Shown in pieces: positions 8,301 to 55,667 of a DNA stretch of 64,000 nucleotides. The DNA is from Candidatus Moraniibacteriota bacterium. Its GTDB lineage: Bacteria; Patescibacteriota; Minisyncoccia; Moranbacterales; UBA9337. The DNA lies in the NCBI GenBank assembly GCA_026985555.1, contig JALSQF010000007.1:1099-65098 (forward strand), read 5' to 3'. A program made the position numbers and the translations under genes. The notes beneath the pieces were generated by a model that worked only from the letters and a program-made list of their open reading frames with translations, made no database searches and was not told the DNA's origin. Within the stretch, counting starts at the first letter, position 1. Every line of letters begins with the position of its first letter.

Positions 8301-10199
8301 ATGTTTTTAAAAAATAAACCAACAAATAAATTTTTTCAAAAAACAAACGAAATAGAAGATGCCGTGCTTTCTCTTTCTGAAAAAGAAGTAACTATTATTG
8401 AAAAAAAGCCTCATCTTTTTTGGTTAAATTTTTTTTGGTGGATAATAATATTATTCTTATTAATATTGAGTGGAAGAGTTTTCTATTTAACTGTGGTAAG
8501 AGGTAATTATTATAATAAACTTGCTCAGAAAAATAAAATTCGTTCTTTAATTATAAAAGCTCCACGTGGCTTAATTTATGATTATAAAAGAAGATTATTA
8601 GTGCATAATATTCCAAGTATGAACGTAGTTGTTTATCCTTATGATCTTCCTTCTCAAAGTAAAAAAAGAAAAGAAATAGCAGAAAAATTAGCTAAAATAT
8701 TAAAAATTAATAGAGGTGAGATTTGGGGAATACTAGAAAATAGTGAGAAAAACATTGATAAAATTTATATATTAAAAAAAGGTGTTTCTTATGATGAATC
8801 TTTAAAAATAATAGAAAGAGCATCAGAGTTTCCTGGTGTTAAAATTGAAAAAGATGCTTTACGTCAATATGTGGATGGAATGATTTTTTCTCATTTAATT
8901 GGTTATACTGGGAAAATAGAGAAAAATGAATTAGATAAATTAAAAAAATATGGATATTTTATGTTTGATGATATTGGCAAAAGTGGTTTAGAAAAGTCTT
9001 ATGAAAAAATTTTGCGCGGAAAATTTGGTTATAAAAAAATAGAAGTTGATGCACAGGGGAAAATGAAGACAAGCTTAGGAGAACAAAGTCCTCAACCAGG
9101 AAATGATTTAGTTTTAAATATAGATGCGGATTTACAAAAAAAAATTTATGATGTTTTATCTCAAATATTAGAAAAAGAAAAATTAAAAGCAGCAGCGGCA
9201 GTAGCTTTAAATCCTAAAAATGGTGGAGTGCTAGCTTTGGTTAGCCTTCCTAGCTATGATAATAATCTTTTTGCACAAGGAATAACTTTAAAAGATTATC
9301 AGAAGTTGATTACTAATCCTTTAAAACCAATGTATAATAGAGCTCTAACAGGAGAATATCCACCAGGGTCCACTATAAAACCATTGTTAGCAGCAGCTGC
9401 GTTGAAAGAAGGTGTTATTACAGAGCATACGCAAATAGAAAGTAAAGGTGGAATTAAAGTAGGTAAATATTATTTTGGAGATTGGAAAGCTCATGGCTGG
9501 ACTGATGTTAGAAGAGCCATTGCTGTTTCTAGTGATGTTTTCTTTTATTCAGTAGGGGGAGGATATGGAAATATTAAAGGAATGGGAATGAGCACTATGA
9601 AGAAATATGAAGAATTATTTGGCTTAAATCATTTAACAGGAATAGATCTTCCAAATGAATCTACAGGTTTTATTCCTGACGAAAATTGGAAAAAACAAAA
9701 ATTTAATGAGCCTTGGTATAGAGGAAATAGTTATCATGCTGCTATTGGTCAAGGGTATATTACTGTTACTCCTTTACAAATTGCTAATTATATTTCGGCT
9801 ATAGCTAACAAGGGAACGTTATTTAAACCAAGAGTAGTTTCTCAAATTATTAAAAATAATGGTGAAACAATTAACTTGCCTCCTCAGATAATTAGGAAAA
9901 ATTTCATAGATAAATCTATTTTAAAAATAGTTAGAGAAGGTATGCGTATGACTATTACTCAAGGAACAGCTCAAATGTTAAAAGAATTACCAGTGGAAGT
10001 GGCTGGTAAAACAGGAACAGCTCAGTTTGGAAATAAAAACAAAACTCATGGTTGGTTTGTTTCTTTTGCTCCTTATAAAGATCCTAAAATAGTATTAGTT
10101 ATCTTATTTGAAAATCAAGAGGGACATGGATACTATGCTGTTCCTGCTACAAAAGAAATATATCAGTGGTATTTTCAAAATAAAAAAATACAAGAGTAA
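8301..10199 (+). CDS. mrdA: Penicillin-binding protein 2 (peptidoglycan D,D-transpeptidase)
   Basis: N-terminal TM anchor, a PBP dimerisation domain, and the transpeptidase motifs STIKP (SxxK), SSD (SxN) and KTGT. Confidence 0.85.
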   Translation: MFLKNKPTNKFFQKTNEIEDAVLSLSEKEVTIIEKKPHLFWLNFFWWIIILFLLILSGRVFYLTVVRGNYYNKLAQKNKIRSLIIKAPRGLIYDYKRRLLVHNIPSMNVVVYPYDLPSQSKKRKEIAEKLAKILKINRGEIWGILENSEKNIDKIYILKKGVSYDESLKIIERASEFPGVKIEKDALRQYVDGMIFSHLIGYTGKIEKNELDKLKKYGYFMFDDIGKSGLEKSYEKILRGKFGYKKIEVDAQGKMKTSLGEQSPQPGNDLVLNIDADLQKKIYDVLSQILEKEKLKAAAAVALNPKNGGVLALVSLPSYDNNLFAQGITLKDYQKLITNPLKPMYNRALTGEYPPGSTIKPLLAAAALKEGVITEHTQIESKGGIKVGKYYFGDWKAHGWTDVRRAIAVSSDVFFYSVGGGYGNIKGMGMSTMKKYEELFGLNHLTGIDLPNESTGFIPDENWKKQKFNEPWYRGNSYHAAIGQGYITVTPLQIANYISAIANKGTLFKPRVVSQIIKNNGETINLPPQIIRKNFIDKSILKIVREGMRMTITQGTAQMLKELPVEVAGKTGTAQFGNKNKTHGWFVSFAPYKDPKIVLVILFENQEGHGYYAVPATKEIYQWYFQNKKIQE

Positions 10200-18328: not shown

Positions 18329-19789
18329 ATGAGATTTAAAAAACTTATTTATTTAGCAATAATTAGTTTTATTATTTTTCCAGTAGCAACTTTTGCTTCA
18401 GTAGGCAACAATGCTAAAATAAGATTTCTTCATCATTCTACTGGAGGAAATCTTTATTCCCAAGGCAATGTAGCTAGTTGGTTTACCAACTATAATGCTA
18501 ATCATGGTACAAATTATACTATTTCAGAAATAAATTATCCTACTAACGGTTATCCTTGGAACAATTATCCTTATGATTGGTGGAATTTATGGGTAACGGA
18601 AAATCCAGACGGAACACCAAGAACTCCCGCTTGTCAAAACGGAAATGCTAATATGGAATGTTTAAATAACTTAACTTCTCAATATGATGTAATTATCTTT
18701 AAACATTGTTTTCCTGGAGCTCATATTCAGCCAGATACCGGCAATCCAGACGTAACCTCTGATGTGAAAACATTAGAAAATTATAAAGCGCAGTATAGAG
18801 CTATTAGAAAAGAACTAGATAAATATCCCAATAATTTATTTATAGTTTGGACGTTAGTTCCTTTACATAGATTAGCTACAGATACTGAAGAAGCAAGTAG
18901 AGCTAAACAATTTGTAGATTGGGTGAAAAATAATTGGTTAACGGAAGACGGACAATCTCATCCCAATATAAAAATATTTGATTTTTGGAGCCAGGTAGCA
19001 GAAACAAATCCTAATCCACCTCAAGGAGAAGTAAATACTTTAAAATTTAATTATGAAAGAAGTCATACAGCTAATGATTCTCATCCTAATACTTTAGCCA
19101 ATCAAACCGTTGGACCAATTTTTGCTCAAAGTATAGTTGATGATATAAATGAATTTCAGAATCAAGATAGTAATGATGAAAATAATAATGGAAATACTAG
19201 TAATTCTAATAATCAAGGAGGAAGAGTTAATATTAAAAAATTAGAAATTAAATTTAATTCTAAGAAAAAAGCAAAAAAACTTTCAAAAAGAAAAAAAATT
19301 TACTCTAAAAAAAATAAAATTAAATTTAAAGGAATAGTGGAAGGACTATATCAAGGAAAAATAGAAATTTATATTGATAAGAAATTGAAAAAAATAATTG
19401 AATTAAAAGAGAAAGAAAGATGGGGTAAAAAAATAAAATTCAAAAAAAACGGGACACATTGGATAAGGTTTAAATATATAAATAATCAAGGGAAAGTTGT
19501 TAAAAAGTCTAGAAAATATAAAATTAAAATTGATGCTCAAAAACCAAAATTTAAAAAGATGCCATCATTTTTAATGAAACGTAAAGGAGATAGGGTTTGG
19601 TGGAAAGCTACCGATAATGATAAGATAAAATATTATAAATATTATTTTTGTGGCAAGAAAAAAATAACCAAAAAGGGTTCTTTTATTATTCCAGCTAATA
19701 TTTCCAGAGGATTACATCGGCTCAAGATTAAAGCTTATGATAAAGCGGGAAACAAAACTACTAAATATGTTGTTATTTTTGTAAGATAA
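18329..19789 (+). CDS. Secreted protein with an SGNH-hydrolase-like N-domain and a lysine-rich C-terminal tail
   Basis: Signal peptide (FIIFPVATFASVG). A block-V-like D-x-HPN appears twice (DGQSHPN, NDSHPNTLAN). The last 180 aa are about 35% Lys. The function call is weak. Confidence 0.35.
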   Translation: MRFKKLIYLAIISFIIFPVATFASVGNNAKIRFLHHSTGGNLYSQGNVASWFTNYNANHGTNYTISEINYPTNGYPWNNYPYDWWNLWVTENPDGTPRTPACQNGNANMECLNNLTSQYDVIIFKHCFPGAHIQPDTGNPDVTSDVKTLENYKAQYRAIRKELDKYPNNLFIVWTLVPLHRLATDTEEASRAKQFVDWVKNNWLTEDGQSHPNIKIFDFWSQVAETNPNPPQGEVNTLKFNYERSHTANDSHPNTLANQTVGPIFAQSIVDDINEFQNQDSNDENNNGNTSNSNNQGGRVNIKKLEIKFNSKKKAKKLSKRKKIYSKKNKIKFKGIVEGLYQGKIEIYIDKKLKKIIELKEKERWGKKIKFKKNGTHWIRFKYINNQGKVVKKSRKYKIKIDAQKPKFKKMPSFLMKRKGDRVWWKATDNDKIKYYKYYFCGKKKITKKGSFIIPANISRGLHRLKIKAYDKAGNKTTKYVVIFVR

Positions 19790-19812
19790 AATTTTTTTAA
19801 CCCTGTTTTTAA

Positions 19813-19852
19813 CTTTCTGGCTATTTAAATATCCATTTAAATAGCCAGAAAG
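19813..19852. repeat. Perfect 40-bp palindrome CTTTCTGGCTATTTAAAT-ATCC-ATTTAAATAGCCAGAAAG followed by a T-run; copy 1 of a three-member repeat family, also a likely intrinsic terminator
   Basis: 18-bp arms with a 4-nt loop, read directly from the sequence. TTTTTT follows at 19853-19858. It lies in the intergenic gap after the 18329-19789 gene. Confidence 0.8.
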
Positions 19853-19947
19853 TTTTTTAAAAATGAACACTTTACATACAACTTGACTATTGTTATAATT
19901 ATTAAATAATTAGTTATTTAATAAAAAAATAAACAAAGGAGGAAATT

Positions 19948-20487
19948 ATGCATAATTTTTTTTCTTTTTTATTGCAAAGTAATTGTGTTTTGAGTGTATG
20001 TATAATAAGTGTTATAACGGTTGTAATAGCTGGTTTATTTTTATGGTTGGAGCAAAAAAATAGAAATGAGATAATAGCTTTGTTTCATATTAGAGCTAGA
20101 TCTAATATTCTCAAAAATTATTTATCAAGGAAAAATAAATTATCAGAAGGTGAAATAACTATTCTTATGAATAGATGTGTTCAAATAAAATATTGGCTGG
20201 AACAGTTATCAGGAGAGTTTTATTTGACAAGAGCAGGCTTCTTAAAAAAGACAGATAAAACGAAACATAGGTTACCTCAAGCGAGTATGGTAAATTGCTC
20301 TGTGATTGTAGATGATTTAATTTGGGAGGAACACCAAGGAGTTTTTATTTTAGAATTAAATCTAGTGAATAAATCTAAAAAAACCGATATAGTTGTTTGG
20401 AAAAAACAAGGAAAAATAAAACTCCAACTAAAATTATTCTACAATATGAAAAAATTTCCTATTTTTGCGGATATGTTTTTTTCTTAA
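19948..20487 (+). CDS. Hypothetical membrane-anchored protein
   Basis: Strong AAGGAGG Shine-Dalgarno 6 nt upstream, an N-terminal TM helix, and no recognisable domain. It is followed by a strong terminator. Confidence 0.4.
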   Translation: MHNFFSFLLQSNCVLSVCIISVITVVIAGLFLWLEQKNRNEIIALFHIRARSNILKNYLSRKNKLSEGEITILMNRCVQIKYWLEQLSGEFYLTRAGFLKKTDKTKHRLPQASMVNCSVIVDDLIWEEHQGVFILELNLVNKSKKTDIVVWKKQGKIKLQLKLFYNMKKFPIFADMFFS

Positions 20488-20499
20488 ATTTTTAAAATA

Positions 20500-20540
20500 A
20501 AAGGATCTAAGTTTTTTTAATTTAGATCCTTTTTTGTTTT
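20500..20540 (+). terminator. Rho-independent terminator
   Basis: Stem AAAGGATCTAA / TTAGATCCTTT (11 bp) with an 11-nt loop, then TTTTTGTTTT. Confidence 0.65.
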
Positions 20541-20663
20541 ATTAAATTTTTAAGTTTATAAAAAATTAATCTTTTTCTAACAACTAAATAGATTAATCAA
20601 ATAGTTTGATTTTTTCTAACTTCTATTATAAATTTAAAAGAGTAAACAATTAAGAATAAAATT

Positions 20664-23600
20664 ATGTTTTCTTCTGTAGATGTGCATAAAAAAATAGCTG
20701 AAAGAGAAAAAGAAATATTAAAACTTTGGAAAGAAAAAAAAGCTTTTGAGAAATCGTTAAAATTAACTAAAAATAAACCAAGGTATACTTTTTATGATGG
20801 ACCTCCTTTTGCTACGGGAACACCACATTACGGACATATTGTAGCCAGTGTTATGAAAGACATGGTTCCTCGTTATTGGAGTATGCGAGGCTATTATGTG
20901 GAAAGACGTTGGGGTTGGGATTGTCATGGATTGCCCATTGAAAATATTGTAGAGAAGGAAATGGGTTCTCAAAAGAAAAAAGATATAGAAAAGATTGGTG
21001 TAGCTAAGTTTAATCAAATGTGTCGGAGTAAAGTTTTAAGTTATGTAGAGGACTGGAAGAAAGTTATTAATCGCTTAGGTCGTTGGGTAGATATGGAAAA
21101 TGCTTACAAAACTATGGATTTAGAATATATGGAATCAGTTTGGTGGGTATTTAAACAGCTTTATGATAAAAAACTTATTTATAAAAATTATCGTTCTTTG
21201 CATATTTGTCCTCGTTGTGAAACTACCCTTTCTCAATCAGAGGTAACCGAAGGATATAAGGATATAAAAGATTTATCAGTGATTGCTAAATTTAAACTAA
21301 AACCCAATCAAAAAATAAATAAGCAAGAAGTTAAGAACAATGCTTATATTTTAGCTTGGACAACGACGCCTTGGACATTGCCAGGAAACGTGGCTTTGGC
21401 AGTAGGTCCAAAGATAAAATATTCTGTAATAGAAGTCCAAGAAAATAATCAGCAAGAAATTTATATTATAGCGCAACCAAAAGTTAAAGAAATATTAAAT
21501 GAAACATATCAAAATTATAAAATTTTAGCAGAGGTAAAAGGAAAAGAATTAGTCGGTTTAAAATATGAACCATTATGGAACACTTATACTCAGGATAGAA
21601 ACTTAAAAAACAGAGAAAATGGTTGGCGAATAGTTGAGGCTGATTTTGTAACTACTAAAGAAGGAACGGGAGTAGTGCATATTGCTCCGGCTTTCGGAGA
21701 AGACGATATGAAATTAGGTAAAGAAAAAAAATTACCTTTTGTTCAACATGTGGGAATGGATGGAATAGTTGATAAAAAAGTAGAAGCGGTAGGTGGTTTA
21801 AATGTCAAACCAATTGATAATCCTCAATCCACAGATGTAGAGGTGATTAAATATTTAGCTAGTAAAAAACTTTTGTTTCACAAAGAAAAATATGAACATA
21901 GTTATCCTCACTGTTGGCGATGTGATAGTCCTTTAATTAACTATGCTACTTCTTCTTGGTTTGTAAAAGTTACTGCTCTTAAGAAAGAAGCAATTCAATT
22001 AGCTCAAAAAATTAACTGGTCTCCGGCACACATTAAAACAGGACGTTTCGGCAAGTGGCTAGAAGGAGCTAGAGATTGGTCAATTTCTCGTCAACGATTT
22101 TGGGCTTCTGTAATTCCTATTTGGGAATGTGATCAGTGTGGAAAAAGAAAAGTTTTTGGTTCTACACGAGAAATTAATCAAAAGTTAGGAAAATTTTTAG
22201 TTTTAAGACATGGTGAAGCTGAAAATAACATTAAAAAAATTTGTTCTTCTTTAGTAACAGATAAATATTCCCTAACAGAAAAAGGAAGAAAACAAGTAAT
22301 TGCAACGGCTAAAAAATTAGAAAAAGAAAAAATAGATCTTATTCTAGCTTCTGACTTAATAAGAACAAAGGAAACCGCCGAAATTATAGCTCAAAAATTA
22401 GGCGTAAAAATTATTTTTGATAAACGTTTAAGAGAGGTAAATGTAGGAAAGTTTAATGGGAAAACTTTTAATGAAATTAAAGATTTTAAAGAAAAATGGA
22501 ATCAAGGAAAAAATATTCAATTTCCTCAAGGAGATAGTTGGGAAAGTATTAAAGAAAGAGTAACTAATTTTTATAATGATATTTTTTTAAAGTATAGAAA
22601 CAAAAATAAAAATATTTTAATTATTTCTCATGCGGATATTCTAATAACTTTAGAAGCTATATTGAAAGGGAAGAATTATAAGGCGCAGATTAAAAAAATT
22701 TATCAAAATAATTATATTAAAAACGGGGAATTAAGAAAAATTAATTACAAATTACTAGATTTACACAAGCATATAGTAGACGGGATTACTTTTAGTTGTG
22801 ATAAAAGAGGATGTCAAGGACAAATGAAAAGAGTGCCAGACGTTTTAGATACTTGGTTTGATAGCGGATCTATGCCATATGCTCAAAAACATTATCCTTT
22901 TGAAAATAAAAAAATTTTTGACAAAACTTTTCCAGCTGATTTTATTGCAGAGGGACAGGATCAGACTAGAGCCTGGTTTTATTATTTACACGTATTAGCT
23001 ATAGCTTTAAAACACAAACCAGCCTTTTATAATGTTATAGTAAATGGAATTGTTTTAGCGGAAGATGGAAAAAAAATGAGTAAGAAATTAAAAAATTATC
23101 CTGATCCAATGGAAATGTTTGAGAAATATGGCGCTGATGCAGTTCGTTTTTACCTAATGAGTTCCCCAGTGGTAGCGGCGCAAAATTTAAATTTTTCTGA
23201 AAAAGAGGTGGCCGAAATTGTAAGAGGAACTATTAGGATGTTGTTTAATTCTTATAGTTTTTTTATTACTTACGCTAAAATTGATCATTGGAAACCCCAG
23301 AAAAAAAATAATTTAAAAAGAAAAAATTTATTGGATAGATGGATTATTTCAGAATTAAATTTGTTAGTTAGAGAATTTAATCACAAAATGGAGGCTTATC
23401 AACTGCATAAGGCCACTCGTTTATTACCTGATTTTATTGATAATTTATCTAATTGGTATATACGGCGTAGTCGTCGTCGTTTTTGGAAAAGTGAAAACGA
23501 CGAAGACAAACAAGAAGCTTATGAAACTTTATATTATGTTTTACTTACTTTAAGCAAAATTATTGCTCCAGTTATGCCTTTTCTAGCGGAGGAGATATAT

Positions 23601-24227
23601 TCTAATTTAGCAAATAGTTTTCAAAAAAAATGGCAATCAGTTCACTGGCAATCATTTCCTCAAAGTCAAGAAAATTTAATTGATGAAAAAATCAATCAGA
23701 AAATGAAAAAAACGAGAGAAATTATTAGAGAAGCTTTGCAGTTAAGATCACAAGCGCAAATTAAAGTGAGACAACCTCTCAGTGTTCTTTATTTAGATTT
23801 TTCTGATAATTTTAATGCAGATTTAAAAGAAGTCATTCAAGAAGAAGTGAATATTAAGAAAATTATTTTTTTGAAAAAGGAAAATAAAAAAGTATTAAAA
23901 GAAAATCAAAAAAATATTATTTGGAATGAAACAAAAACAATCGGATTAGATAAAAACATAACTAATGATTTAAAACTAGAAGGACAAGCTAGAGAAATTA
24001 TTCGTTTTATTCAGCAGTTACGTAAAAAAGCTAATTATAACTTAGACGATAGAATTCAAGTGACGTATCAAGGTAAGGAAGAAGTTTGGCAAAGGTTTGG
24101 AGATCTGATTTCTAAGGAAGTTTTAGCCGCCCAAGTAAGTAATTCTTATTCTCAAGTAAAAAATTTTGATATAAAAGACAAGCAAGAAATAGAAAATGAT
24201 TGGTTAGAAATAAAATTAAAAAAATAG
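20664..24227 (+). CDS. ileS: Isoleucyl-tRNA synthetase, type 2 (archaeal/eukaryote-like), with an inserted histidine-phosphatase (PGAM-family) domain
   Basis: HIGH motif PHYGHIV, KMSKS motif KMSKKL, and the IleRS editing and anticodon-binding regions. Between the two zinc-knuckle halves (WECDQCG ... SCDKRGCQ) lies an extra domain of about 185 aa. It carries LRHGEAENN (the RHG catalytic motif), SDLIRTKETAEII and a C-terminal ISHADIL (the SH(G) motif). Confidence 0.9.
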   Translation: MFSSVDVHKKIAEREKEILKLWKEKKAFEKSLKLTKNKPRYTFYDGPPFATGTPHYGHIVASVMKDMVPRYWSMRGYYVERRWGWDCHGLPIENIVEKEMGSQKKKDIEKIGVAKFNQMCRSKVLSYVEDWKKVINRLGRWVDMENAYKTMDLEYMESVWWVFKQLYDKKLIYKNYRSLHICPRCETTLSQSEVTEGYKDIKDLSVIAKFKLKPNQKINKQEVKNNAYILAWTTTPWTLPGNVALAVGPKIKYSVIEVQENNQQEIYIIAQPKVKEILNETYQNYKILAEVKGKELVGLKYEPLWNTYTQDRNLKNRENGWRIVEADFVTTKEGTGVVHIAPAFGEDDMKLGKEKKLPFVQHVGMDGIVDKKVEAVGGLNVKPIDNPQSTDVEVIKYLASKKLLFHKEKYEHSYPHCWRCDSPLINYATSSWFVKVTALKKEAIQLAQKINWSPAHIKTGRFGKWLEGARDWSISRQRFWASVIPIWECDQCGKRKVFGSTREINQKLGKFLVLRHGEAENNIKKICSSLVTDKYSLTEKGRKQVIATAKKLEKEKIDLILASDLIRTKETAEIIAQKLGVKIIFDKRLREVNVGKFNGKTFNEIKDFKEKWNQGKNIQFPQGDSWESIKERVTNFYNDIFLKYRNKNKNILIISHADILITLEAILKGKNYKAQIKKIYQNNYIKNGELRKINYKLLDLHKHIVDGITFSCDKRGCQGQMKRVPDVLDTWFDSGSMPYAQKHYPFENKKIFDKTFPADFIAEGQDQTRAWFYYLHVLAIALKHKPAFYNVIVNGIVLAEDGKKMSKKLKNYPDPMEMFEKYGADAVRFYLMSSPVVAAQNLNFSEKEVAEIVRGTIRMLFNSYSFFITYAKIDHWKPQKKNNLKRKNLLDRWIISELNLLVREFNHKMEAYQLHKATRLLPDFIDNLSNWYIRRSRRRFWKSENDEDKQEAYETLYYVLLTLSKIIAPVMPFLAEEIYSNLANSFQKKWQSVHWQSFPQSQENLIDEKINQKMKKTREIIREALQLRSQAQIKVRQPLSVLYLDFSDNFNADLKEVIQEEVNIKKIIFLKKENKKVLKENQKNIIWNETKTIGLDKNITNDLKLEGQAREIIRFIQQLRKKANYNLDDRIQVTYQGKEEVWQRFGDLISKEVLAAQVSNSYSQVKNFDIKDKQEIENDWLEIKLKK

Positions 24228-24238
24228 TATTTAAAAAC

Positions 24239-24270
24239 CGCAATCAAATTTGATTGCGATTTCTTGTTTT
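24239..24270. terminator. Bidirectional rho-independent terminator between convergent ileS and the 24300-24821 gene
   Basis: Perfect 20-bp palindrome CGCAATCAAATTTGATTGCG followed by ATTTCTTGTTTT. It is flanked by A-runs on the other side. Confidence 0.6.
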
Positions 24271-24299
24271 CACTAAAATTCTATTTAAAATTTAAAATA

Positions 24300-24821
24300 T
24301 TATTTTCGTTTCATCTTCCAAAAACATTCTCTCCTCAAATTTATAACTTCACTTTGAGAGGAGGTGTAATTTTTGTCAAAAAAACTAATCATATTGAAAA
24401 TATTTTTCTCATCGTAAATTTTATCAAGACTTTTGAAAAATTTATCAACTAGATCAACATCTTCTCTTACTGAAAGGTCTAAAGTGTGAATAATATTTGA
24501 TTTAAGTTGAAGCAATACACTGCATATTGTCACACAATATTTTTCGCTATTCAGAGCCTTACCTGTTTTATATAGGTATTCACCGTAAAAAAGTAAGTAA
24601 CGCTCCTTCTTTTTTTCATCATTTTCTTTTTTAATCTCTCTTAAAATATTTTTATTTAGGAGAGATATAATTTCATTACCCATAATCCGTAGTTGATTCT
24701 GATAAGTCGTTTTTATTTTTTCCTTAATTTCCTGAAAAAATAAAAAAAGAAGATAGAAAATAATAACAAAAAAAACAATAACAACAGAATGTTGCGTAAA
24801 AAGATTCGTGTAATTTTCCAT
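24300..24821 (-). CDS. Hypothetical membrane-anchored protein
   Basis: AGGAGG Shine-Dalgarno upstream on the minus strand. N-terminal TM helix (VVIVFFVIIFYLLFLFF). No recognisable domain. Confidence 0.4.
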   Translation of the reverse strand: MENYTNLFTQHSVVIVFFVIIFYLLFLFFQEIKEKIKTTYQNQLRIMGNEIISLLNKNILREIKKENDEKKKERYLLFYGEYLYKTGKALNSEKYCVTICSVLLQLKSNIIHTLDLSVREDVDLVDKFFKSLDKIYDEKNIFNMISFFDKNYTSSQSEVINLRRECFWKMKRK

Positions 24822-24944
24822 TTCTTGCCTCCTTTTTTATTCTTTATTTTAAAAAACTTAATTCAAATTATTGTATTGATTTTTTCTTTTTTGTCAAGTT
24901 TTCCTGTTTTTTTGTTGATTGTTTTAATTATTTTGTTCTTTTTT

Positions 24945-24984
24945 CTTTCTGGCTATTTAAATGGATATTTAAATAGCCAGAAAG
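24945..24984. repeat. Perfect 40-bp palindrome, copy 2 of the repeat family; the loop is GGAT, so it is the inverted copy of 19813-19852
   Basis: CTTTCTGGCTATTTAAAT-GGAT-ATTTAAATAGCCAGAAAG. The arms are identical to copy 1 and the loop is its reverse complement. It lies in the divergent intergenic region between the 24821(-) and 25093(+) gene starts. Confidence 0.8.
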
Positions 24985-25092
24985 AAATTTTAATTTAACG
25001 AAAAAGTTTTTAAAATGAAGTTTTATTTTTTGTTTAATAGAGAAGAATATTTATTTGCTCCTTGATTAAATTTATTGTATAATTCAACTAAT

Positions 25093-28903: not shown

Positions 28904-31393
28904 ATGAATTTAGATTTACTTTTAATTAGTATTATTATTGTTTCTGCTGTAATTTCTTTGCTAAGCGGTCTTTGGTTATTGATAAAAAGTTTTCTTACTT
29001 TTCGGGCGCAAATTAATTATTCTATCAATATGGATTTAGAAATAGTGAGAGTTTCTTTGCCTACTGATGATAATCAGGAACATTCTCTTAATAATCAAGA
29101 ACGACCTGCTTGGAAAAATGAAATAAAATTAATGGAACAATGGTTGGGTACCTTATCAGCATTAAGAGTAAAAAAAACTTGGAAAGAATGGTTTTATGGT
29201 GATCCTTATATTGCTTTAGAAATAACTAATCCTTCCGATGACGAAGAAATTAGTTTTTATTTATCTGTGCCAAAAAAATTTAGAGAAAGAATAGAAAAAC
29301 AAATTCATAGTTTTTTCCCCGAGGCTAAGCTAGAAGGTGTTTCTGATTATACAATTTTTACACCTAATAGTTATACAGCCATAGCTTTTGTTAAATTAAA
29401 AGAAGAACCATTCCTTCCACTTAAAACTTATGAAACAATGGATGCAGATCCCTTAAATGAAATTTCTAATGCTATTAGTAAACTAAACACTATAGAAGAA
29501 GGAGCTACCTTACAATTAGTTCTTGGTCCAGCGCCTAAAGAATGGCGAAGAAATGGTTTAAAAATAGCTCATGAAATGCAACAAGGAAAACAATTAAAAA
29601 AAGTTTACCATTCTTCTTGGTTAGGAAAAGCATTCAAGGAGATAGGAAAAGGGATTTTAACCGTTCTTTTTTATAAAACTAAAACGGATGCTAATATTAG
29701 CAACACAAAGGATAAAGATGAACCGATACAATTAACTCCAGAAGAACAAGAATTAATTAAAACAATAGAAACAAAAGCAAAAAAACCAGCTTTTCAAGTT
29801 AATATTAGAATTATATCTTCAGCTAGTACACCTGAGAGAGCAGAAGAGATTTTAGCGCAGATGGAAAATTCTTTAGCTCAATTTGAAAATCCGGAAGTGA
29901 ATAATTTCGTAATAACGGAAAGAAAAAAAGATAAAAAAATGGTCTTTAATTATATCTTCCGTAATTTTAATCCAGAAAAAGCTATAATTTTAGGAGTAGA
30001 AGAAATTGCTAGTCTTTTTCATTTTCCTACTTCTCTTACTAAAACACCTAAAATTAAATGGCTAAAATCTGGAACAGCTCCTCCGCCTGTACATATTCCT
30101 CAAAAAGGCATTTTATTAGGATTTAATGACTATAGAGGAGTTAAAACAGAAATTCGTTTAGCTGATAATGACAGAAGAAGACATTTATATACTATTGGAC
30201 AAACGGGAACAGGAAAATCTACTTTTTTAACTGAAATGGCTAAACAAGATGTTAAAAATGGAAAAGGGATTTGCGTTGTTGATCCTCATGGTGATTTAGT
30301 AGAGGATATTTTAACTGCTATTCCTAAAGAAAGAGCAGAGGATGTTATATATTTTAATCCGGCTGATACAGAAAGACCTTTGGGTTTAAATATGTTAGAA
30401 TATGAAAAACCAGAGGAAAAAAGTTTTGTAGTAAATGAAATGATTAGTATTTTTGATAGACTTTATGATTTAAAACAAACTGGAGGACCGATGTTTGAAC
30501 AATACGCGCGAAATGCTATGTTGTTAATAATGGAACATCCAGAATCCGGATCTACTTTAATGGAAATTTCTAAAGTCTTAGCCAATGAAGATTTTAGAAA
30601 AATGAAGTTAGATCATTGTAAAAATCAAGTGGTAAAAGATTTTTGGATTAAGGAAGCTGAAAAGGCAGGAGGAGAAGCGGCTTTGGCTAATATCGTTCCT
30701 TATGTAACTTCTAAATTAAATACTTTTGTAACTAATGATATAATGCGTCCTATTATTGCTCAGCAAAAAAGTAGTTTGGATTTTAGAGAAATTATGGATA
30801 GTGGAAAAATATTATTAGTTAATCTTTCTAAGGGAAAACTGGGAGAAATTAATAGTCATCTATTAGGTATGGTGGTAGTGGGAAAAATTTTGATGGCAGC
30901 TCTTAGTAGAGTAGATTTACCAGAAAAGAAAAGAAAAGATTTTTATCTTTATATTGATGAATTTCAAAATGTGACTACTGATTCTATCGCTCAAATTTTA
31001 TCTGAAGCGCGAAAGTATCATCTTAATTTAATTATCGCGCATCAATTTATCGGACAATTAAGTGAAGAAATATCTAAAGCTGTTTTTGGTAATGTAGGTT
31101 CTCTTTGCGCTTTTAGAGTTGGACCAGAAGATGCTGAATTTTTAGAAAAACAATTTGAACCGATTTTTCATCGCAATGATTTAATTAATATAAACAATTA
31201 TAGTTGTTATACTAAATTATTGCTAAACGGAGAAACTAGTCGTCCTTTTGATATGAAAACTTATCCACCCTCTGAAGGTGATCAAGAGTTAGCTAACAAT
31301 ATAAAAGAACTTTCTCGTTTAAAATATGGAAGGGATAAAAAGATAATAGAAGAGGAAATTAATAGTAGAAATGTAAATTTGAGTAAATTTTAA
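28904..31393 (+). CDS. Membrane-anchored VirD4/TraG/TraD-family type IV coupling-protein-like P-loop ATPase
   Basis: N-terminal TM helix, then an uncharacterised domain of about 400 aa, then Walker A GQTGTGKST and Walker B YLYIDEF. The C-terminal DEFQNV...ARKYHLNLIIAHQFIGQL matches the DE...R...QS..QL pattern of the TraG-D_C domain. Confidence 0.55.
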   Translation: MNLDLLLISIIIVSAVISLLSGLWLLIKSFLTFRAQINYSINMDLEIVRVSLPTDDNQEHSLNNQERPAWKNEIKLMEQWLGTLSALRVKKTWKEWFYGDPYIALEITNPSDDEEISFYLSVPKKFRERIEKQIHSFFPEAKLEGVSDYTIFTPNSYTAIAFVKLKEEPFLPLKTYETMDADPLNEISNAISKLNTIEEGATLQLVLGPAPKEWRRNGLKIAHEMQQGKQLKKVYHSSWLGKAFKEIGKGILTVLFYKTKTDANISNTKDKDEPIQLTPEEQELIKTIETKAKKPAFQVNIRIISSASTPERAEEILAQMENSLAQFENPEVNNFVITERKKDKKMVFNYIFRNFNPEKAIILGVEEIASLFHFPTSLTKTPKIKWLKSGTAPPPVHIPQKGILLGFNDYRGVKTEIRLADNDRRRHLYTIGQTGTGKSTFLTEMAKQDVKNGKGICVVDPHGDLVEDILTAIPKERAEDVIYFNPADTERPLGLNMLEYEKPEEKSFVVNEMISIFDRLYDLKQTGGPMFEQYARNAMLLIMEHPESGSTLMEISKVLANEDFRKMKLDHCKNQVVKDFWIKEAEKAGGEAALANIVPYVTSKLNTFVTNDIMRPIIAQQKSSLDFREIMDSGKILLVNLSKGKLGEINSHLLGMVVVGKILMAALSRVDLPEKKRKDFYLYIDEFQNVTTDSIAQILSEARKYHLNLIIAHQFIGQLSEEISKAVFGNVGSLCAFRVGPEDAEFLEKQFEPIFHRNDLININNYSCYTKLLLNGETSRPFDMKTYPPSEGDQELANNIKELSRLKYGRDKKIIEEEINSRNVNLSKF

Positions 31394-34085: not shown

Positions 34086-35243
34086 ATGTGGAACTTGTTT
34101 AAAGCTAAATCAAATGTTTTTTTAGGAGTAGATTTTGGAACTTCTTCTATTAAAGTTGTGGAGTTATTGTATGATAATGATAGAACTCATTTGAAAAATT
34201 ATGGTTGGATTGATTTTAAAAAACAACCGAAAAAAGATGATGCTAATAATTTAAATATTGTTTTAGATACGACAGAGAAAAATAACAGACAAATGAATTT
34301 AAAAAATAGTTTAGCTGTTTTGTTATCTGCTATGAAACCAGAATCACATTCTGTTTATGCAGCTATGCCAGGTATAAGTGGACTTGTGGCCTTAATAGAT
34401 TTTCCTCAAATGGATAAAAAAGAATTAGATAAAGCTATTCAATACGAAGCTCATAAATATATTCCTGTTCCGTTAGATGAAGTTTATTTAAGTTGGGATG
34501 TAGTTTCCAGAATTAAAGATGAAGAAACAGGACTGTTGTCTTTATATAACCAAAAAAATGAAAGAAAGGATACTAAAAAAAACAAAAATAAAAAAGCTAT
34601 GCAAGTTTTGTTAGTAGCAGCACCTAAAGATGAAGTAGAAAATTATGAGAATCTAATTACATCCTTAAATTTTAAAATGACATCCTTAGAATTATCTATG
34701 TTTGCGAGTGCGCGATCTTTAGTGGGGGACGACTTGGGCGGTTATCTCATAATTGATATAGGAGCGGATACAACAGATATTATTTTAGTAGATAGAGGAG
34801 TAATTAAAATTAATAGAATTATAGATGTAGGAGGAAATGAAGTTACTAAGGCTGTAGCTTCTAGTATGAATATATCTTGGCAAAGAGCAGAATCTTTTAA
34901 AAGACAAAAAAGAGGAATAATTTTTAGTCAAAATAGTCAATTGATTATACCTGCATTAGATTTAATTTCTGGAGAAGCAATCAGAACTATAGAGAATTAT
35001 CGTCACAAAAGTTTAACGGATGTTAGGATAGATAAAATTATTTTATCAGGAGGAGGTTCTCGTTTAAGTGGCATAGATAAATATTTTTCTCAAGCATTAA
35101 ATATATCAACTGAAATAGGAAATCCATGGAAAGGAATTGTGATAGATAAAAATATAGAAAAAAAAGTTAAAAACTATGGGACATCTCTGGCAGTGGCTAT
35201 TGGTCTAGCTGAAAAAGGAATAAAAGATTTTCAACGAAATTAG
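34086..35243 (+). CDS. pilM: Type IV pilus assembly protein PilM (actin-like ATPase fold)
   Basis: N-terminal FLGVDFGTSSIKVVEL phosphate-1 motif of the actin/FtsA fold, and a C-terminal GG-S glycine-rich motif. First gene of a pilMNO-pilB cluster. Confidence 0.7.
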   Translation: MWNLFKAKSNVFLGVDFGTSSIKVVELLYDNDRTHLKNYGWIDFKKQPKKDDANNLNIVLDTTEKNNRQMNLKNSLAVLLSAMKPESHSVYAAMPGISGLVALIDFPQMDKKELDKAIQYEAHKYIPVPLDEVYLSWDVVSRIKDEETGLLSLYNQKNERKDTKKNKNKKAMQVLLVAAPKDEVENYENLITSLNFKMTSLELSMFASARSLVGDDLGGYLIIDIGADTTDIILVDRGVIKINRIIDVGGNEVTKAVASSMNISWQRAESFKRQKRGIIFSQNSQLIIPALDLISGEAIRTIENYRHKSLTDVRIDKIILSGGGSRLSGIDKYFSQALNISTEIGNPWKGIVIDKNIEKKVKNYGTSLAVAIGLAEKGIKDFQRN

Positions 35244-35399
35244 AATATTTTAAAAGTTGTTTGACAAAGTTTAATTTTAGGTTAAAATTAAAATAATAAG
35301 ATAATTATTTTAATTTTTTTATTATTTAATAAAAATAAAAATAAAAAATAATTTTTTGATTTTTTTAGTAGTTTTACTAAAAAAAATTAAAACAAAAAA

Positions 35400-35939
35400 A
35401 TGGTTAATATTGACTTTCATGAACAAGTAGAACAACAAAATGAAGAAAACAAAGGGGCCGTTTCATTTTTAACGGGATGGCAGATATCTGTTCTTCTTCT
35501 TCTGGTAGTTTTTACTATTTATGGAGTAAGTTACTATTATAAAAAAATAGTAAAAAATCAAGTGAAAAAAGTAGAATTAGCTATTCAAAAAGAAAAACAA
35601 ACTGTTAATAAAGATGATATTAAAACGGTAGTTAATTTTGTGAAAAGAAAAAATGTAATTGAAAAAGTTAATTCTCAAGAAAACTCTGAAGCTTTAGCTA
35701 AACTTTTAATGCTGGAGAAAAATATTAATCAAGGAATTTATCTAACATCTTATAATTATTCTAAAAATCAGTCAGTAATTGAAATAAAAGGGATAGGAGC
35801 TAATTATCATACCGTTGCTCAGCAAGTATATAATTTTAAAAATGATAGTCAAAATGTTCGTTTTGTAAAAATACATACAGTAAATAAAAATGAAGATGGT
35901 GGAGTTGATTTTGGTTTAACAATTGGTCTTAAAAACTAA
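35400..35939 (+). CDS. PilN-like bitopic pilus assembly protein
   Basis: 179 aa. Short cytoplasmic N-terminus, one TM helix (ISVLLLLVVFTIYGV) and a periplasmic domain. Position between pilM and the PilO-like gene. Confidence 0.45.
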   Translation: MVNIDFHEQVEQQNEENKGAVSFLTGWQISVLLLLVVFTIYGVSYYYKKIVKNQVKKVELAIQKEKQTVNKDDIKTVVNFVKRKNVIEKVNSQENSEALAKLLMLEKNINQGIYLTSYNYSKNQSVIEIKGIGANYHTVAQQVYNFKNDSQNVRFVKIHTVNKNEDGGVDFGLTIGLKN

Positions 35940-36013
35940 ATATTTTTTAATTAATATAAAAACAAATAATTTCTTTTTTGTAATCTTAGATTACAAAAAA
36001 GAAAAATAAAAAT

Positions 36014-36841
36014 ATGAGACTAAAGTTATTCTTCTTTCCTACAGCATTACTTATTACAGTTGTTATGTTTATTTGGTATATTTATCCTTTGTGGCAGGGA
36101 AAGGGAGGTATATCTGATCAGCACAAAAAACTAAAAGAAACAAAACAAACCTTAGAGACTTTTCGGGCTAAAAAAACTTCGTTGAATCAAGCAGTTGAGA
36201 TGCTAGATAATCACAATGATGACGTAAAATTTGCTTTTCAATTTATTCCTTTAAAAAGTAACGATTTGTTTATTTTAAATTCCTTAAGTCAAATAGCTGA
36301 TCAATCGGGATTGATTTTAAATTCAATTAATGTGAGCGAAGAAAAAAAGAGTAATAAAAAAGAGCAAAGCGAAAAAAATAAAACAGTAGATGTGCTTAAT
36401 GATATGAATTGGAGAAGTGCAGTTGCTTCTGTTAATGTAATAGGAAGTTATGAACAAGTTAAAAGTTTTTTAACTAGTCTTTATCATCTTGATAGGTATA
36501 ATCAAATAGATTCTTTGGATATAGAAACTAATAATAAATCAGAAAATGCAAACGAAAATGAAAATCAAGCCAATTTGTTAACATTTAATGCTAAAATTAA
36601 TTTCAGATATCTTCCAGATGCATTAATACCAGTTGAAGGGGAAGAAAAATTTTTAGATAATTTTCAGTTTTCTGAAAATTATTTTAATTTTTTAGCTATC
36701 AATAGTTTAAAAGAAAAAAATAATATTCAATCACAGGGAGGTGGTTTAGAAGAGGGTATTACTGGTCAAATAACCAATCCATTCACTCCTTTTTCTTCTA
36801 ATACTGTTAATGTCGCTAGTGCTAATAATACTTCTAATTAA
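36014..36841 (+). CDS. PilO-like bitopic pilus assembly protein
   Basis: N-terminal TM, a coiled-coil segment (KKLKETKQTLETFRAKK), and a periplasmic domain with a low-complexity tail. Assigned by position and topology. Confidence 0.4.
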   Translation: MRLKLFFFPTALLITVVMFIWYIYPLWQGKGGISDQHKKLKETKQTLETFRAKKTSLNQAVEMLDNHNDDVKFAFQFIPLKSNDLFILNSLSQIADQSGLILNSINVSEEKKSNKKEQSEKNKTVDVLNDMNWRSAVASVNVIGSYEQVKSFLTSLYHLDRYNQIDSLDIETNNKSENANENENQANLLTFNAKINFRYLPDALIPVEGEEKFLDNFQFSENYFNFLAINSLKEKNNIQSQGGGLEEGITGQITNPFTPFSSNTVNVASANNTSN

Positions 36842-36979
36842 TTTGAATTAGCTTAAGCTTGGAATGATATAAATATAAAAATTATACACATTTTACTGTA
36901 TTGCAGTTATTATATAATTATACTTATCTTTTGTGATTAAAAAAATAAAACTAAAAAACAAAAATAGAAAAAGAAATAG

Positions 36980-38674: not shown

Positions 38675-38707
38675 CTTAAAATATTTTTATTTTTTAGTAA
38701 TAAACAT

Positions 38708-39094
38708 ATGACACAAAAAAAATCTCAAAAAAAAGTAGTTTTATTAGTAGAAGACGATATTTTTATTAGAGAAATTTATGATAGAAAAATAACTGCTGAA
38801 GGATATGAGGTAGAATTAGCTAAGGATGGAGTAGAAGCTATTAATTTTTTAAAAAAACAAATCCCGGATTTAATTTTATTAGATATTGTAATGCCCAGAA
38901 TGGACGGAAGAGAAGTTTTAGCAAAATTAAAATCTCATAAAGAATGGAAAAATATTCCGGTTATAATGTTAACTAATCTTTCTGAAAAAGAAGAAATAGA
39001 AGAAGAACTGGGGCAAGGAGTAGATGAGTATATAATTAAAGCGCATTTTACTCCATCAGAAGTAATGGCTAAAATAAAAAAATTTTTAATTTGA
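38708..39094 (+). CDS. Stand-alone CheY-like response-regulator receiver domain
   Basis: VLLVEDD...LLDIVMP(R)MDG with the phospho-acceptor Asp, then T and K (KAHF) receiver motifs. 128 aa with no output domain. Confidence 0.75.
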   Translation: MTQKKSQKKVVLLVEDDIFIREIYDRKITAEGYEVELAKDGVEAINFLKKQIPDLILLDIVMPRMDGREVLAKLKSHKEWKNIPVIMLTNLSEKEEIEEELGQGVDEYIIKAHFTPSEVMAKIKKFLI

Positions 39095-39129
39095 TTAACT
39101 TTAATTAACAAAAAAACAAAAAGAAAAGT

Positions 39130-40206: not shown

Positions 40207-40281
40207 TTGTGAAAAAAGAATAAATATAGTATAATTTGTTTAAGAATTTTTATTAAAAATATAAATCGGAAAAACAAAAAT

Positions 40282-41490: not shown

Positions 41491-41617
41491 ACAGATATTT
41501 TTTAAAGAGTAATAATCTGTTATAATAGATAAAGTGAAACATTAATAATAATTTGAAGAAGGAAAGTTTTAATATAGTTAATAACTAAAATAAAAATAGA
41601 ATGGAGGTGAAATATAA

Positions 41618-42061
41618 ATGATAAATCAAACTAAAAAAGGATTTACTTTAATTGAATTATTGATTGTGATTGCTATTATTGGTATTTTAGCTTCTATTAT
41701 TTTGGTAAGTTTGAATAGTGCAAGAAATAAGGCAACGGTAGCTGCCTATAAGTCAACAGTTAGTAGTTTAGTTCCGGCAGTAACAATGTGTTGTGATAAT
41801 GCTACTAATACTCTTCAAACTACTGCTGGAAGTGATATATGTAGTGTTGCAGTTGGTTCTAATCTTCCTTCAGCAGCTGATATGAAAGCATCATCTGTAA
41901 CATATGCATCTGTAAATGATTGCAGCACAAGTAATCCTGCTATTTCCGTTACACCTGCAGGCTTACCTATCTCTGCTTGTAATGCAACTGTTTATGTGTC
42001 AACACAAGGAATTTATTCTGATTCTAGTTTAACAACTTCTGGTTTTCCGTCAGGTTGTTAA
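41618..42061 (+). CDS. Type IV pilin (class III signal peptide), Cys-rich variable domain, ends in SGC
   Basis: [20 protein letters not shown] is a prepilin leader with G-1, F+1 and E+5. GGAGGTG Shine-Dalgarno upstream. Elevated local GC and Ala/Ser/Thr content. A terminator lies downstream. Confidence 0.75.
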
Positions 42062-42079
42062 TTTCACTCAAAGATTTTT

Positions 42080-42117
42080 TTGCTTGTTGAATAATTCAAC
42101 AAGCAAGTTAAGTTTTT
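42080..42117 (+). terminator. Rho-independent terminator after the first pilin gene
   Basis: 12-bp stem TTGCTTGTTGAA / TTCAACAAGCAA with a 3-nt loop, then a TTTTT run. Confidence 0.6.
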
Positions 42118-42508: not shown

Positions 42509-42515
42509 AAAGAAA

Positions 42516-42938: not shown

Positions 42939-42975
42939 TTTTTTAATCAAGAATAATCAATTTTTAATAGGAAAT

Positions 42976-43782: not shown

Positions 43783-43805
43783 ATAAAAAATAATTTTCCA
43801 TAAAA

Positions 43806-44297: not shown

Positions 44298-44331
44298 CTA
44301 AATTTATAAAATTATCCAAAGAAAAAATATT

Positions 44332-54816: not shown

Positions 54817-54825
54817 ACAATTAGT

Positions 54826-54875
54826 TTTCTGGCTATTTAAATATCCATTTAAATGGATATTTAAATAGCCAGAAA
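54826..54875. repeat. Perfect 50-bp palindrome, the extended copy 3 of the repeat family (contains both the ATCC and GGAT units)
   Basis: TTTCTGGCTATTTAAAT-ATCC-ATTTAAAT-GGAT-ATTTAAATAGCCAGAAA. Its 3' flank (GAAATTTTA) is shared with copy 2. Confidence 0.8.
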
Positions 54876-55643: not shown

Positions 55644-55667
55644 TATTTTATTTTCTTTTAAAATGAG

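Follow-up and report, generated by a model that had tools for sequence, protein, structure and literature searches.

The window analysed here is a 64-kb stretch of DNA from the metagenome-assembled genome (MAG) of an uncultured Patescibacteria species. Within it, two 40-bp palindromes flank a segment that contains a 179-aa ORF, ileS (1187 aa) and a convergent 173-aa ORF. A third palindrome of the same kind lies further downstream, and the features concerned are:

19813..19852, no strand: copy A, the 40-bp two-box form with loop ATCC
20499..20533, plus strand: terminator-like hairpin of the 179-aa gene, outside the repeat family
24239..24258, plus strand: terminator-like hairpin belonging to ileS, CGCAATCAAATTTGATTGCG plus a T-rich tail, outside the repeat family
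24945..24984, no strand: copy B, the 40-bp form with loop GGAT and arms as in copy A
54826..54875, no strand: copy C, the three-box form, a 50-bp perfect palindrome (the 52-bp family unit occupies 54825-54876)

Copy A has the layout CTTTCTGGCTATTTAAAT-ATCC-ATTTAAATAGCCAGAAAG and, like copy B, makes up a hairpin with 18-bp arms. The two copies, each of 40 nt and separated by 5092 nt, are 100% reverse complements, which bears out the original prediction of perfect palindromes that are inverted copies of each other, coordinates included. That prediction had also placed ileS and two putative membrane-protein ORFs in the segment, and one N-terminal hydrophobic segment was indeed found in each of the 179-aa and 173-aa ORFs. 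The perfect palindromes extend privately beyond the shared sequence, to 19811-19854 for A and 24942-24987 for B. Copy A begins 24 nt past the stop codon of the plus-strand gene at 18329-19789 and is followed on its 3' side by TTTTTT at 19853-19858 and then by a promoter-like site for the gene at 19948. Copy B is situated in the middle of the intergenic region of two divergent genes, the 173-aa ORF (24300-24821, minus strand) and an SLT-domain gene on the plus strand with its start at 25075 or 25093. The 12-mer GGCTATTTAAAT, with at most one mismatch, occurs 11 times against an expectation of 1.85, a number reached in 0 of 100 shuffles. Copies A and B are unchanged in the NCBI assembly GCA_054022635.1 and in that of a second strain, GCA_054024795.1, and copy C has the same sequence in ENA ERZ27262668. 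Chance or an assembly artefact is thus ruled out by the shuffles and by the identity across independent assemblies and strains. In the Logan unitigs of two read sets, unitig ends or starts fall within the palindromes.

Copy C, which the original prediction had overlooked, is located about 10 nt past the stop codon of an MBL-fold gene (53938-54816) and reads TTTCTGGCT-ATTTAAAT-ATCC-ATTTAAAT-GGAT-ATTTAAAT-AGCCAGAAA; the same site in strain 2 carries the 40-bp GGAT form. The unit of the family can be written as (C/T)TTT-CTGGCT, two to three repeats of ATTTAAAT-NNNN, and then AGCCAG-AAA(G/A). Three ATTTAAAT boxes make a 52-bp unit and two boxes a 40-bp one, so that the 40-bp forms correspond to the three-box form minus one 12-bp unit. 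The boxes are themselves 8-bp palindromes, set at a fixed 12-bp spacing in a perfect dyad. The core of 36-48 bp (TTCTGG...CCAGAA) is invariant in 13/13 copies, and neither copies with 1-2 mismatches nor solo boxes or one-box forms were found in roughly 170 kb. Asymmetry of the 40-bp form is confined to the 4-nt loop, and both orientations occur, unrelated to gene direction. A larger element hidden around the palindrome was rejected, since conservation drops to the background level after 4 nt outside CCAG (about 2 nt past the core) and the intergenic regions are otherwise unrelated. Stems are 18-25 bp long, with predicted free energies of -26 to -32 kcal/mol as RNA (z-scores -8 to -10.6) and -17 to -22 kcal/mol as DNA hairpins. 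The left flanks are rich in T and the right flanks in A, and the two tend toward mutual inverted complements (run-length permutation p=5e-5), with marginal column-wise covariation over 14 positions (36-39 of 500 shuffles as high). For five copies the private extension of the arms into the flanks is real, without being proof of selection. Insertion of the element into pre-existing terminator hairpins is unlikely, as removal of the core leaves only short AT palindromes without a loop, and several of these are in divergent regions.

The original prediction had called for a count of the motif, and we found at least 13 copies in one genome, three in the window and 10 on five contigs of metagenome Ga0256833. 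These contigs belong to the genome of the window because the MAGs GCA_054022635.1 and GCA_054024795.1 carry both. The copies are clustered on six contigs, and 3.7-6.3 kb separate the members of several pairs; some 13 copies is a low number for a REP family. All 13 are intergenic, compared with an intergenic share of 5% in the window (p about 1e-17). Five, including B, lie between divergent genes, eight in co-directional contexts and none between convergent genes, and each copy precedes at least one gene. An association with promoters was not supported by these contexts, as intergenic length predicts such a mix (p=0.34 and 0.47). Next to the copies stand housekeeping genes with no relation to one another, such as secD|secF, trx|ftsE, thrS|grx, gyrA, ndk and smc. 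An all-against-all comparison of the flanking proteins gave no paralogues and no common function, which speaks against a regulon, and the palindrome-bearing intergenic regions have nothing else in common.

Several of these positions suggest transcription termination. It can be envisaged that the copies are primarily intrinsic, possibly bidirectional, terminators or insulators, and that a good terminator module was reused across the genome. Copy A is followed by its T-run soon after a stop codon, copy C lies close behind another, a terminator scan flags copy B on the plus strand, and the RNA hairpins are predicted to be very stable. T-runs fall on the downstream side in 5/8 co-directional contexts against 0/8 by eye (Wilcoxon p=0.047 for run length), and long AT-rich hairpins follow genes elsewhere in the genome. 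However, a usable U-tract is present in only about half of the eight co-directional copies, and the downstream excess of T-runs is marginal (p 0.05-0.13, the upper value, 0.13, being that of the best-window T-count). Terminators would be harmful at the secD|secF copy and at a site in the sister species 19 nt before a start codon, while ileS and the 179-aa gene have separate terminator-like hairpins. Nor does termination account for the 100% sequence identity, since a terminator needs a structure and not a particular sequence. Termination cannot define the family because 5/13 copies, B included, lie between divergent genes, a context that no annotated transcript reaches. Shared intrinsic terminators, as once proposed for this locus, therefore fit some copies, A and C among them, and do not cover the whole family, and we regard a primary terminator function as unlikely.

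The perfect dyad, the 8-bp palindromic boxes at fixed spacing and the identity of all copies would also suit two or three ATTTAAAT boxes bound by a protein, either a regulon factor or a chromosome organiser of the parS/matS/Noc type. The position of each copy upstream of at least one gene, the clustering of copy pairs and the presence in the sister species of palindromes with the same 12-nt modular layout and another sequence, as co-evolution of site and protein would give, point in the same direction. Against this, the spectrum of degenerate sites expected of binding sites is absent, the nearest start codon lies anywhere between 62 and 462 nt away, the contexts are those that intergenic length alone predicts, and the neighbouring genes share no function. 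The number of boxes differs even between near-identical strains, orthologous positions in the sister species have no site, and, unlike parS, matS or Noc sites, the copies are wholly excluded from coding DNA. Such binding sites are consequently quite improbable as the basis of the family, and the earlier suggestion of an operator for a dimeric regulator fails on the same sites, distances, neighbours and unit-number polymorphism.

The inverted arrangement of A and B raised the further idea that they serve as recombination sites through which the 5.1-kb ileS segment inverts or is excised. Besides the 40-bp perfect inverted repeat itself, a k=31 unitig of SRR8439172 spans exactly the A-B interval, and the graph at k=31 leaves the orientation unfixed. 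This break is, however, expected of a k=31 graph at any repeat of at least 31 bp, and the assemblies show a single orientation in GCA_054022635.1, in the source of the window and in GCA_054024795.1 (strain 2). The gene order ileS->SLT->SIMPL->RNase H is also found in the sister species, without the palindromes, and no recombinase or invertase is encoded within the window. Moreover, ileS is essential and single-copy, and other copy pairs enclose unrelated gene sets. We therefore consider inversion or excision, which had been among the initial candidates, very improbable. Since ileS has its own hairpin at 24239..24258, it is independent of copy B. The statement that the palindromes bracket ileS is true of their positions and does not extend to a special cassette, as the copies belong to a dispersed family; their placement on both sides of ileS is a coincidence within a locally clustered family. 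For the annotation of the window the value of this result is mainly negative, in that ileS belongs to no mobile or invertible cassette.

The family appears to be restricted to one species. A search of 185,579 species-representative genomes yielded no full copy and 25 half-matches, all attributable to chance, and no copy was found in other metagenomes. A phage or plasmid origin was rejected, as viral contigs and phage and plasmid collections gave no meaningful match to the motif. A known RNA family was likewise excluded: at the Rfam gathering score only tRNA-Lys was detected, and at E<=1 only sub-threshold look-alikes of miRNA precursors, which reflect generic hairpin similarity. A sister species (IleS 68% and BipA 80% identical) has the same gene order and lacks a palindrome in the orthologous positions of B and C; different perfect palindromes built from 12-nt units (ACGTTATTACGA) occur in others of its intergenic regions, among them the one 19 nt ahead of a start codon.

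Comparison of two strains that are ~99.5% identical indicates how the copies change. At 2/9 shared sites the strains differ by one 12-bp unit, compared with 0.19 indel events expected, and the data show frequent gain and loss of single 12-bp units. This turnover also accounts for the loops ATCC and GGAT, as deletion of either unit of the three-box form leaves one or the other. Hairpin-templated replication errors, such as template switching at quasipalindromes, would yield all three kinds of change seen here: alternative loops, a 12-bp unit gained or lost between ATTTAAAT direct repeats, and copy-specific arm complementarity that grows into unique flanks. Hairpin-mediated minute inversion and slipped-strand deletion are, however, mutational processes and not a family of elements; hairpin-templated errors explain the variation among copies and not their origin or spread. 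No empty/filled site pair was found between the two strains, with 9/9 compared sites filled in both. The sister species, with its IleS only 68% identical, is too distant for a base-level alignment of empty sites.

Taken together, these results make it probable that the palindromes are a small, species-specific, non-coding dispersed repeat family of the REP/MITE-like kind. This candidate had been raised at the outset, and it agrees with the 13 copies, their exclusively intergenic location, sharp boundaries and restriction to one species, and their non-orthologous positions relative to the sister species. We infer that the element is mobile. A trans-acting activity, perhaps a hairpin-specific transposase or some kind of recombination, would copy it to new intergenic sites; insertions would survive only at sites that leave genes undisrupted. 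Once transcribed, a copy would be predicted to fold into an 18-25 bp hairpin. Copies just past a stop codon and followed by a U-run may then act as intrinsic terminators or as hairpins that protect the 3' end, which is most likely for copy A and possible for copy C and a few others. For copies between divergent genes, B included, the role of an inert passenger is probable. Alternatively, strong selection on a putative protein-binding site could have kept all copies perfectly identical. Neither the window nor some 60 kb of annotated related loci yielded a transposase, RAYT or recombinase, and no longer element with the same termini, as a parent IS would be, was detected in the window, the related loci or the phage and plasmid collections. 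Target-site duplications are also absent, the flanks not being direct repeats.

The REP/REPIN elements of Proteobacteria are mobilised by RAYT Y1 transposases, the gene for which is typically REP-flanked. The palindromes share with them a short length (about 35-50 bp), hairpin formation, multiple copies, strictly extragenic placement, a sequence private to a species and the lack of target-site duplications. Both also occur within operons, as at secD|secF here, and behind stop codons, as possible RNA 3'-end hairpins. In contrast to REPs, the element here is a perfect palindrome of 12-bp units that lacks both a bulge and an asymmetric GTAG-like head, and thus has no intrinsic orientation; it has ~13 copies rather than hundreds, no RAYT gene was seen in the window and related loci, and it resides in a Patescibacteria bacterium. 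Among classical E. coli REPs a position between divergent genes is rare, whereas five copies are so placed here. Like MITEs (Correia/NEMIS of Neisseria and RUP/BOX of Streptococcus), the family is non-coding, dispersed and intergenic, has inverted termini and can supply terminators or influence neighbouring transcripts. MITEs, however, are usually 100-400 bp long, with terminal inverted repeats around an internal region, while the whole element here is one palindrome of 40-52 bp. The target-site duplications of MITEs are direct, whereas the flanks here are inverted complements, and no parent IS was found in the sequences searched.

Two other systems bear comparison. TIGR arrays are long tandem alternations of short repeats and 9-nt spacers beside a Tas (Nop-domain) gene; a Tas-associated array was rejected, as the palindromes are isolated, contain 2-3 units with invariant 'spacers' and have no adjacent Tas-like gene. 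DNA uptake sequences are known as inverted pairs in terminators, namely the DUS of Neisseria and the USS of Haemophilus (Kingsford et al. 2007, cited in PMC13155455). As in these sequences, an identical motif recurs here as the arms of hairpins downstream of genes; the genome encodes type IV pili, and a ComEC-like MBL-domain protein adjoins copy C. Uptake sequences differ in that they occur about once per kb and also inside genes, whereas the element here has ~13 copies, never in coding DNA.

A broader and rather doubtful proposal is that related Patescibacteria each possess a private family of perfect palindromes made of 12-bp units (here ATTTAAAT+4, in the sister species ACGTTATTACGA). Such families might co-evolve with a hairpin- or cruciform-binding enzyme or protein, or serve as structure-dependent insulators or supercoil sinks between genes. 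If this were true, private families with a binding partner would be to CPR bacteria what the REP-RAYT pairing is to Proteobacteria, and selection would act on unit number and on compensating growth of the stem into unique flanks (stems kept at ~20-25 bp).

The very small genomes of Patescibacteria/CPR bacteria are considered poor in mobile DNA and dispersed repeats, and our literature search found no description of REP-like elements in them. The family described here is similar to REP/MITE-like repeats known from other bacteria, of the "junk or semi-domesticated" kind, and provides a lead toward the putative enzyme that copies it. It is, in addition, a natural example of palindrome dynamics, with 12-bp slippage, loop flipping and arm extension. 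Because the number of units varies between strains that are 99.5% identical, the repeat could be used as a strain-typing marker. It is also known to break contigs in k-mer assemblies.

The two palindromes flanking ileS in the window, termed here copies A and B, are exact inverted 40-bp copies of each other as originally claimed: a repeat finder returned 40 nt at 100% complementarity with 5092 nt between them. Each copy is also a hairpin on its own. The gene content proposed for the A-B segment likewise held, with three genes comprising a membrane-type ORF, ileS and a convergent membrane-type ORF. The original prediction overlooked a third copy, copy C.

Palindromes and A-B segment genes in the window
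19813-19852: copy A, reading CTTTCTGGCTATTTAAAT-ATCC-ATTTAAATAGCCAGAAAG, with a private perfect palindrome at 19811-19854
A-B segment, gene 1: 179-aa ORF, hydrophobic segment at the N-terminus
20664-24227: gene 2, ileS, 1187 aa
24300-24821, minus strand: gene 3, convergent 173-aa ORF, hydrophobic segment at the N-terminus
24945-24984: copy B, 18-nt arms as in copy A, loop GGAT, with a private perfect palindrome at 24942-24987
54826-54875: copy C, TTTCTGGCT-ATTTAAAT-ATCC-ATTTAAAT-GGAT-ATTTAAAT-AGCCAGAAA, a perfect palindrome of 50 bp that includes both "loops"

The arm 12-mer, with at most one mismatch allowed, occurs 11 times in the window against 1.85 expected, a count reached in none of 100 shuffles. 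The repeat is built from an 8-bp palindromic box spaced 12 bp apart, and the 40-bp, two-box form is the 52-bp, three-box form without one 12-bp unit. Removing ATCCATTTAAAT from the three-box form gives the GGAT form, and removing ATTTAAATGGAT gives the ATCC form; A and B are therefore not necessarily one element in two orientations, and could be both possible slippage products of one symmetric parent.

The full palindrome was absent from 185,579 bacterial and archaeal species (one genome each), in which GGCTATTTAAATNNNNATTTAAAT gave 25 single matches, none extending into the palindrome. Viral contigs gave no match, and phage and plasmid collections no meaningful match. A metagenome scan recovered 10 more full copies (six three-box, four two-box) on five contigs, all from the single metagenome Ga0256833, bringing the known total to 13. 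These five contigs have no DNA in common with the window besides the palindrome. They nevertheless belong to the same organism as the window, since the NCBI MAG GCA_054022635.1 has contigs matching the window at 100% identity and includes the secDF locus of contig Ga0256833_1000565 as well, while in a second MAG, GCA_054024795.1, the window and two further palindrome contigs have homologous counterparts. By its IleS and BipA homologues, the organism falls within the Patescibacteria, near Moranbacteria, and the G+C content of the window and palindrome contigs is 27-29% throughout.

The core TTCTGGCTATTTAAAT...ATTTAAATAGCCAGAA is unchanged in all 13 copies. Beyond CCAG, information content is high at four positions (AA, A/G, G/A) and falls to background from position 5, and the palindrome-bearing intergenic regions have nothing else in common; the element is thus the 40- or 52-bp palindrome alone, with sharp ends. 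Neither copies with one or two mismatches nor solo boxes nor a one-box form were found in the ~170 kb of palindrome-bearing genome. RNA from either strand is predicted to form stems of 20-24 bp without interruption, closed by 4-nt loops (-26 to -32 kcal/mol; z-scores -8.4 to -10.6 on both strands), and the predicted DNA free energy of the copies is -17 to -22 kcal/mol.

Past the common core, flank complementarity is private to each copy. The complementary flank run averages 4.9 within copies vs 3.0 between copies (permutation p=5e-5). Five of the six two-box copies account for this excess, with runs of 6-11 bp; three-box copies have 2-5 bp (Mann-Whitney p=0.03). Because two-box arms extend further into their flanks, total stems cluster at 16-25 bp. 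Column-wise covariation over 14 flank positions was marginal, with 36-39 of 500 shuffles equally high. In the five two-box copies we regard the arm extension as real. It could stem from hairpin-templated correction (quasipalindrome template switching, an established mutational process), from subfamily masters that were symmetric, or from selection on the length of the stem.

The second MAG represents another strain (strain 2), 99.2-99.9% identical to that of the window (strain 1), and nine palindrome sites could be compared between the two. Seven, A and B among them, have the same form and orientation in both. Site C is three-box in strain 1 (three assemblies) vs two-box GGAT in strain 2, and the site preceding sfsA, three-box in Ga0256833, has the two-box GGAT form in strain 2. 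At site C, the left arm is followed by ATCC in a Logan unitig from SRR33214773, unlike the allele of that MAG, which suggests within-population heterogeneity. Two unit-indel events occurred in ~410 bp, where the overall gap rate predicts 0.19 (p=0.016), and the unit number of the palindrome is hypermutable. No palindrome substitutions separate the strains; fewer than one is expected at ~0.15% background divergence, so this zero is uninformative on selection.

Several other differences between the strains were observed. The 173-aa ORF adjoining copy B, a hypervariable ORFan encoding a small membrane protein and absent from the sister species described below, contains ~75 of the 112 strain differences over 23.5 kb, against a background of ~0.15%; these include 33 bp of insertions, which bring the product to 184 aa in strain 2. 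Strain 1 has a restriction-modification island in the gatA-gyrB interval (locus L050, 8843-11180), with N6/N4 methyltransferase, DpnI-like, AF_1447-like and DpnII-like genes, that strain 2 (locus L051) lacks. Where Ga0256833 has a 2.1-kb segment with a 342-aa ORF (locus L030, 6411-8508), strain 2 has 0.2 kb (locus L046, 4277-4475); the right boundary of the segment is ~55 bp away from the palindrome that precedes gyrA.

All 13 copies are intergenic, though only 5% of the window is (p about 1e-17). Eight have co-directional neighbours and five have divergent ones, and no copy occupies a convergent spacer. A promoter association, which this distribution might suggest, was rejected: the counts match the lengths of the intergenic classes (p=0.34, 0.47), and zero convergent copies is expected because convergent spacers are tiny in the palindrome-bearing genome. 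The nearest start codon is 62 to 462 nt away. Flanking genes are housekeeping and unrelated (secD|secF, trx|ftsE, thrS|glutaredoxin-like, gyrA, ndk, smc, peroxiredoxin, sfsA, pilin-like), and all-against-all BLASTP found no paralogy among their proteins.

Against this background of 13 dispersed copies, the bracketing of ileS is incidental: other close pairs, 3.7-6.3 kb apart, flank the unrelated gene sets ftsEX-secD, SLT-MiaB-like-KAS-thrS and gyrA-rpsO-NYN. These pairs also speak against the proposal that A and B are recombination sites for inversion or excision of the 5.1-kb segment, as do its identical orientation in the window, GCA_054022635.1 and strain 2 and the lack of a recombinase near it. 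The ileS-to-SLT order is also found in the sister species, which has no palindromes there. A Logan k=31 unitig runs exactly from 19823 to 24969; its ends show only that a k=31 graph breaks at a 40-bp repeat.

The idea of shared terminators fits copy A and does not extend to the family. Copy A lies 24 nt past the stop codon of the gene at 18329-19789 and is followed by TTTTTT, 3' of which is a promoter-like site for the next gene (TTTACA-17-TATAAT, with an upstream TG); from this arrangement, it is very likely the terminator of that gene. Copy C begins ~10 nt past the MBL gene stop codon, with a weak T-tail. Across the eight co-directional copies, T-runs are found more often transcription-downstream, a marginal bias (run length p=0.047; T count p=0.13). 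Five copies, B among them, lie between divergent genes and one between secD and secF, while ileS and the 179-aa gene have terminator-like hairpins of their own (24239-24258 and 20499-20533), separate from copy B and the other repeat copies. Termination is therefore not what defines the family, but a role that some copies have plausibly acquired.

The nearest other genome is that of a sister species (ENA ERZ23491050 scaffold_451; IleS 68%, BipA 80% identical), which keeps the gene order ileS-SLT-SIMPL-RNase H-...-ClpB-PilM-...-BipA-...-MraY-like-MBL and lacks the 179-aa and 173-aa ORFs. In its orthologues of the intergenic regions that hold B and C there is no palindrome, and it has palindromes of its own elsewhere.

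Palindromes in the sister species
L038 (uvrD-ileS locus), 9582-9623: 42 bp, perfect, intergenic between uvrD and ileS
L053 (MraY-like-MBL locus), 18400-18447: 48 bp, perfect, intergenic between MraY-like and MBL, with its end 19 nt ahead of the MBL start codon

Both share TTACGAACGT and consist of 12-nt units, with two copies of ACGTTATTACGA in each arm; their sequence is unrelated to the window family and their 12-nt modular layout is alike. Palindromes of this design are thus gained at different positions in the two lineages, with a sequence private to each. Such lineage-specific sites and sequence are the behaviour of a REP-like repeat, not of conserved regulatory sites, and the suggestion of long operators is not borne out.

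Of the candidates proposed, a REP/MITE-like family is the one that the evidence supports. Like REPs or very small MITEs, the repeat is a short, extragenic, species-specific, multi-copy hairpin without target-site duplication, found inside operons and after stop codons. Unlike REPs, it lacks an asymmetric head and its copy number is low. No RAYT, the REP partner, was seen in the visible part of the genome; transposase, RAYT and recombinase domains were absent from the window and annotated related loci, which cover part of the genome. Unlike MITEs, it has no direct target-site duplication. No parent IS was found in the window, the related loci or the phage and plasmid collections. The architecture does not match a TIGR array, and the palindrome matches no Rfam family. 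Since some defining features of the named families are missing and others were unseen in the visible genome, we class the repeat with small dispersed palindromic repeats in general, as a new member, and outside REP/RAYT proper. The CPR literature searched held no description of palindromic repeats of this kind, and within it this is the first such family found in a Patescibacteria genome. Its notable features are the 12-bp modular design, whose layout but not sequence is common to the sister species, the hypermutable unit number and the stems privately extended into unique flanks. Taken as a whole, the original observation of paired palindromes was confirmed and its interpretation partly supported.

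Other features of the window were recorded. Downstream of copies A and C, the leaders of the 179-aa and 172-aa ORFs have in common a 33-nt stretch, 88% identical (19911-19943 and 55085-55117), ending at the ribosome-binding site ...TAGTTATTTAAYAAAAAAAKAAAYMAAGGAGG. Two perfect palindromes are single-copy: one at 55618-55659 (20-bp arms) overlaps the stop codon of the gene at 55125-55643, and one at 35970-36004 (17-bp arms) lies between pilN-like and pilO-like genes, its left arm T-rich and right arm A-rich, as in the repeat family. IleS has a His_Phos_1 (PF00300) histidine-phosphatase domain (aa 512-671) inserted in its class I synthetase catalytic domain; the insertion is present in most of the closest Patescibacteria IleS homologues and missing from a second group of ~1000 aa. 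The stretches 34086-45478, 28904-31393 and 59086-62083 hold pilus and secretion genes: a large type IV pilus cluster encodes PilM/N/O, two T2SSE ATPases, T2SSF, a prepilin peptidase and at least five N_methyl pilins, and type IV secretion-like genes (TrwB/VirD4-like, PrgI and a TraG/VirB4-like P-loop protein) are scattered outside it.
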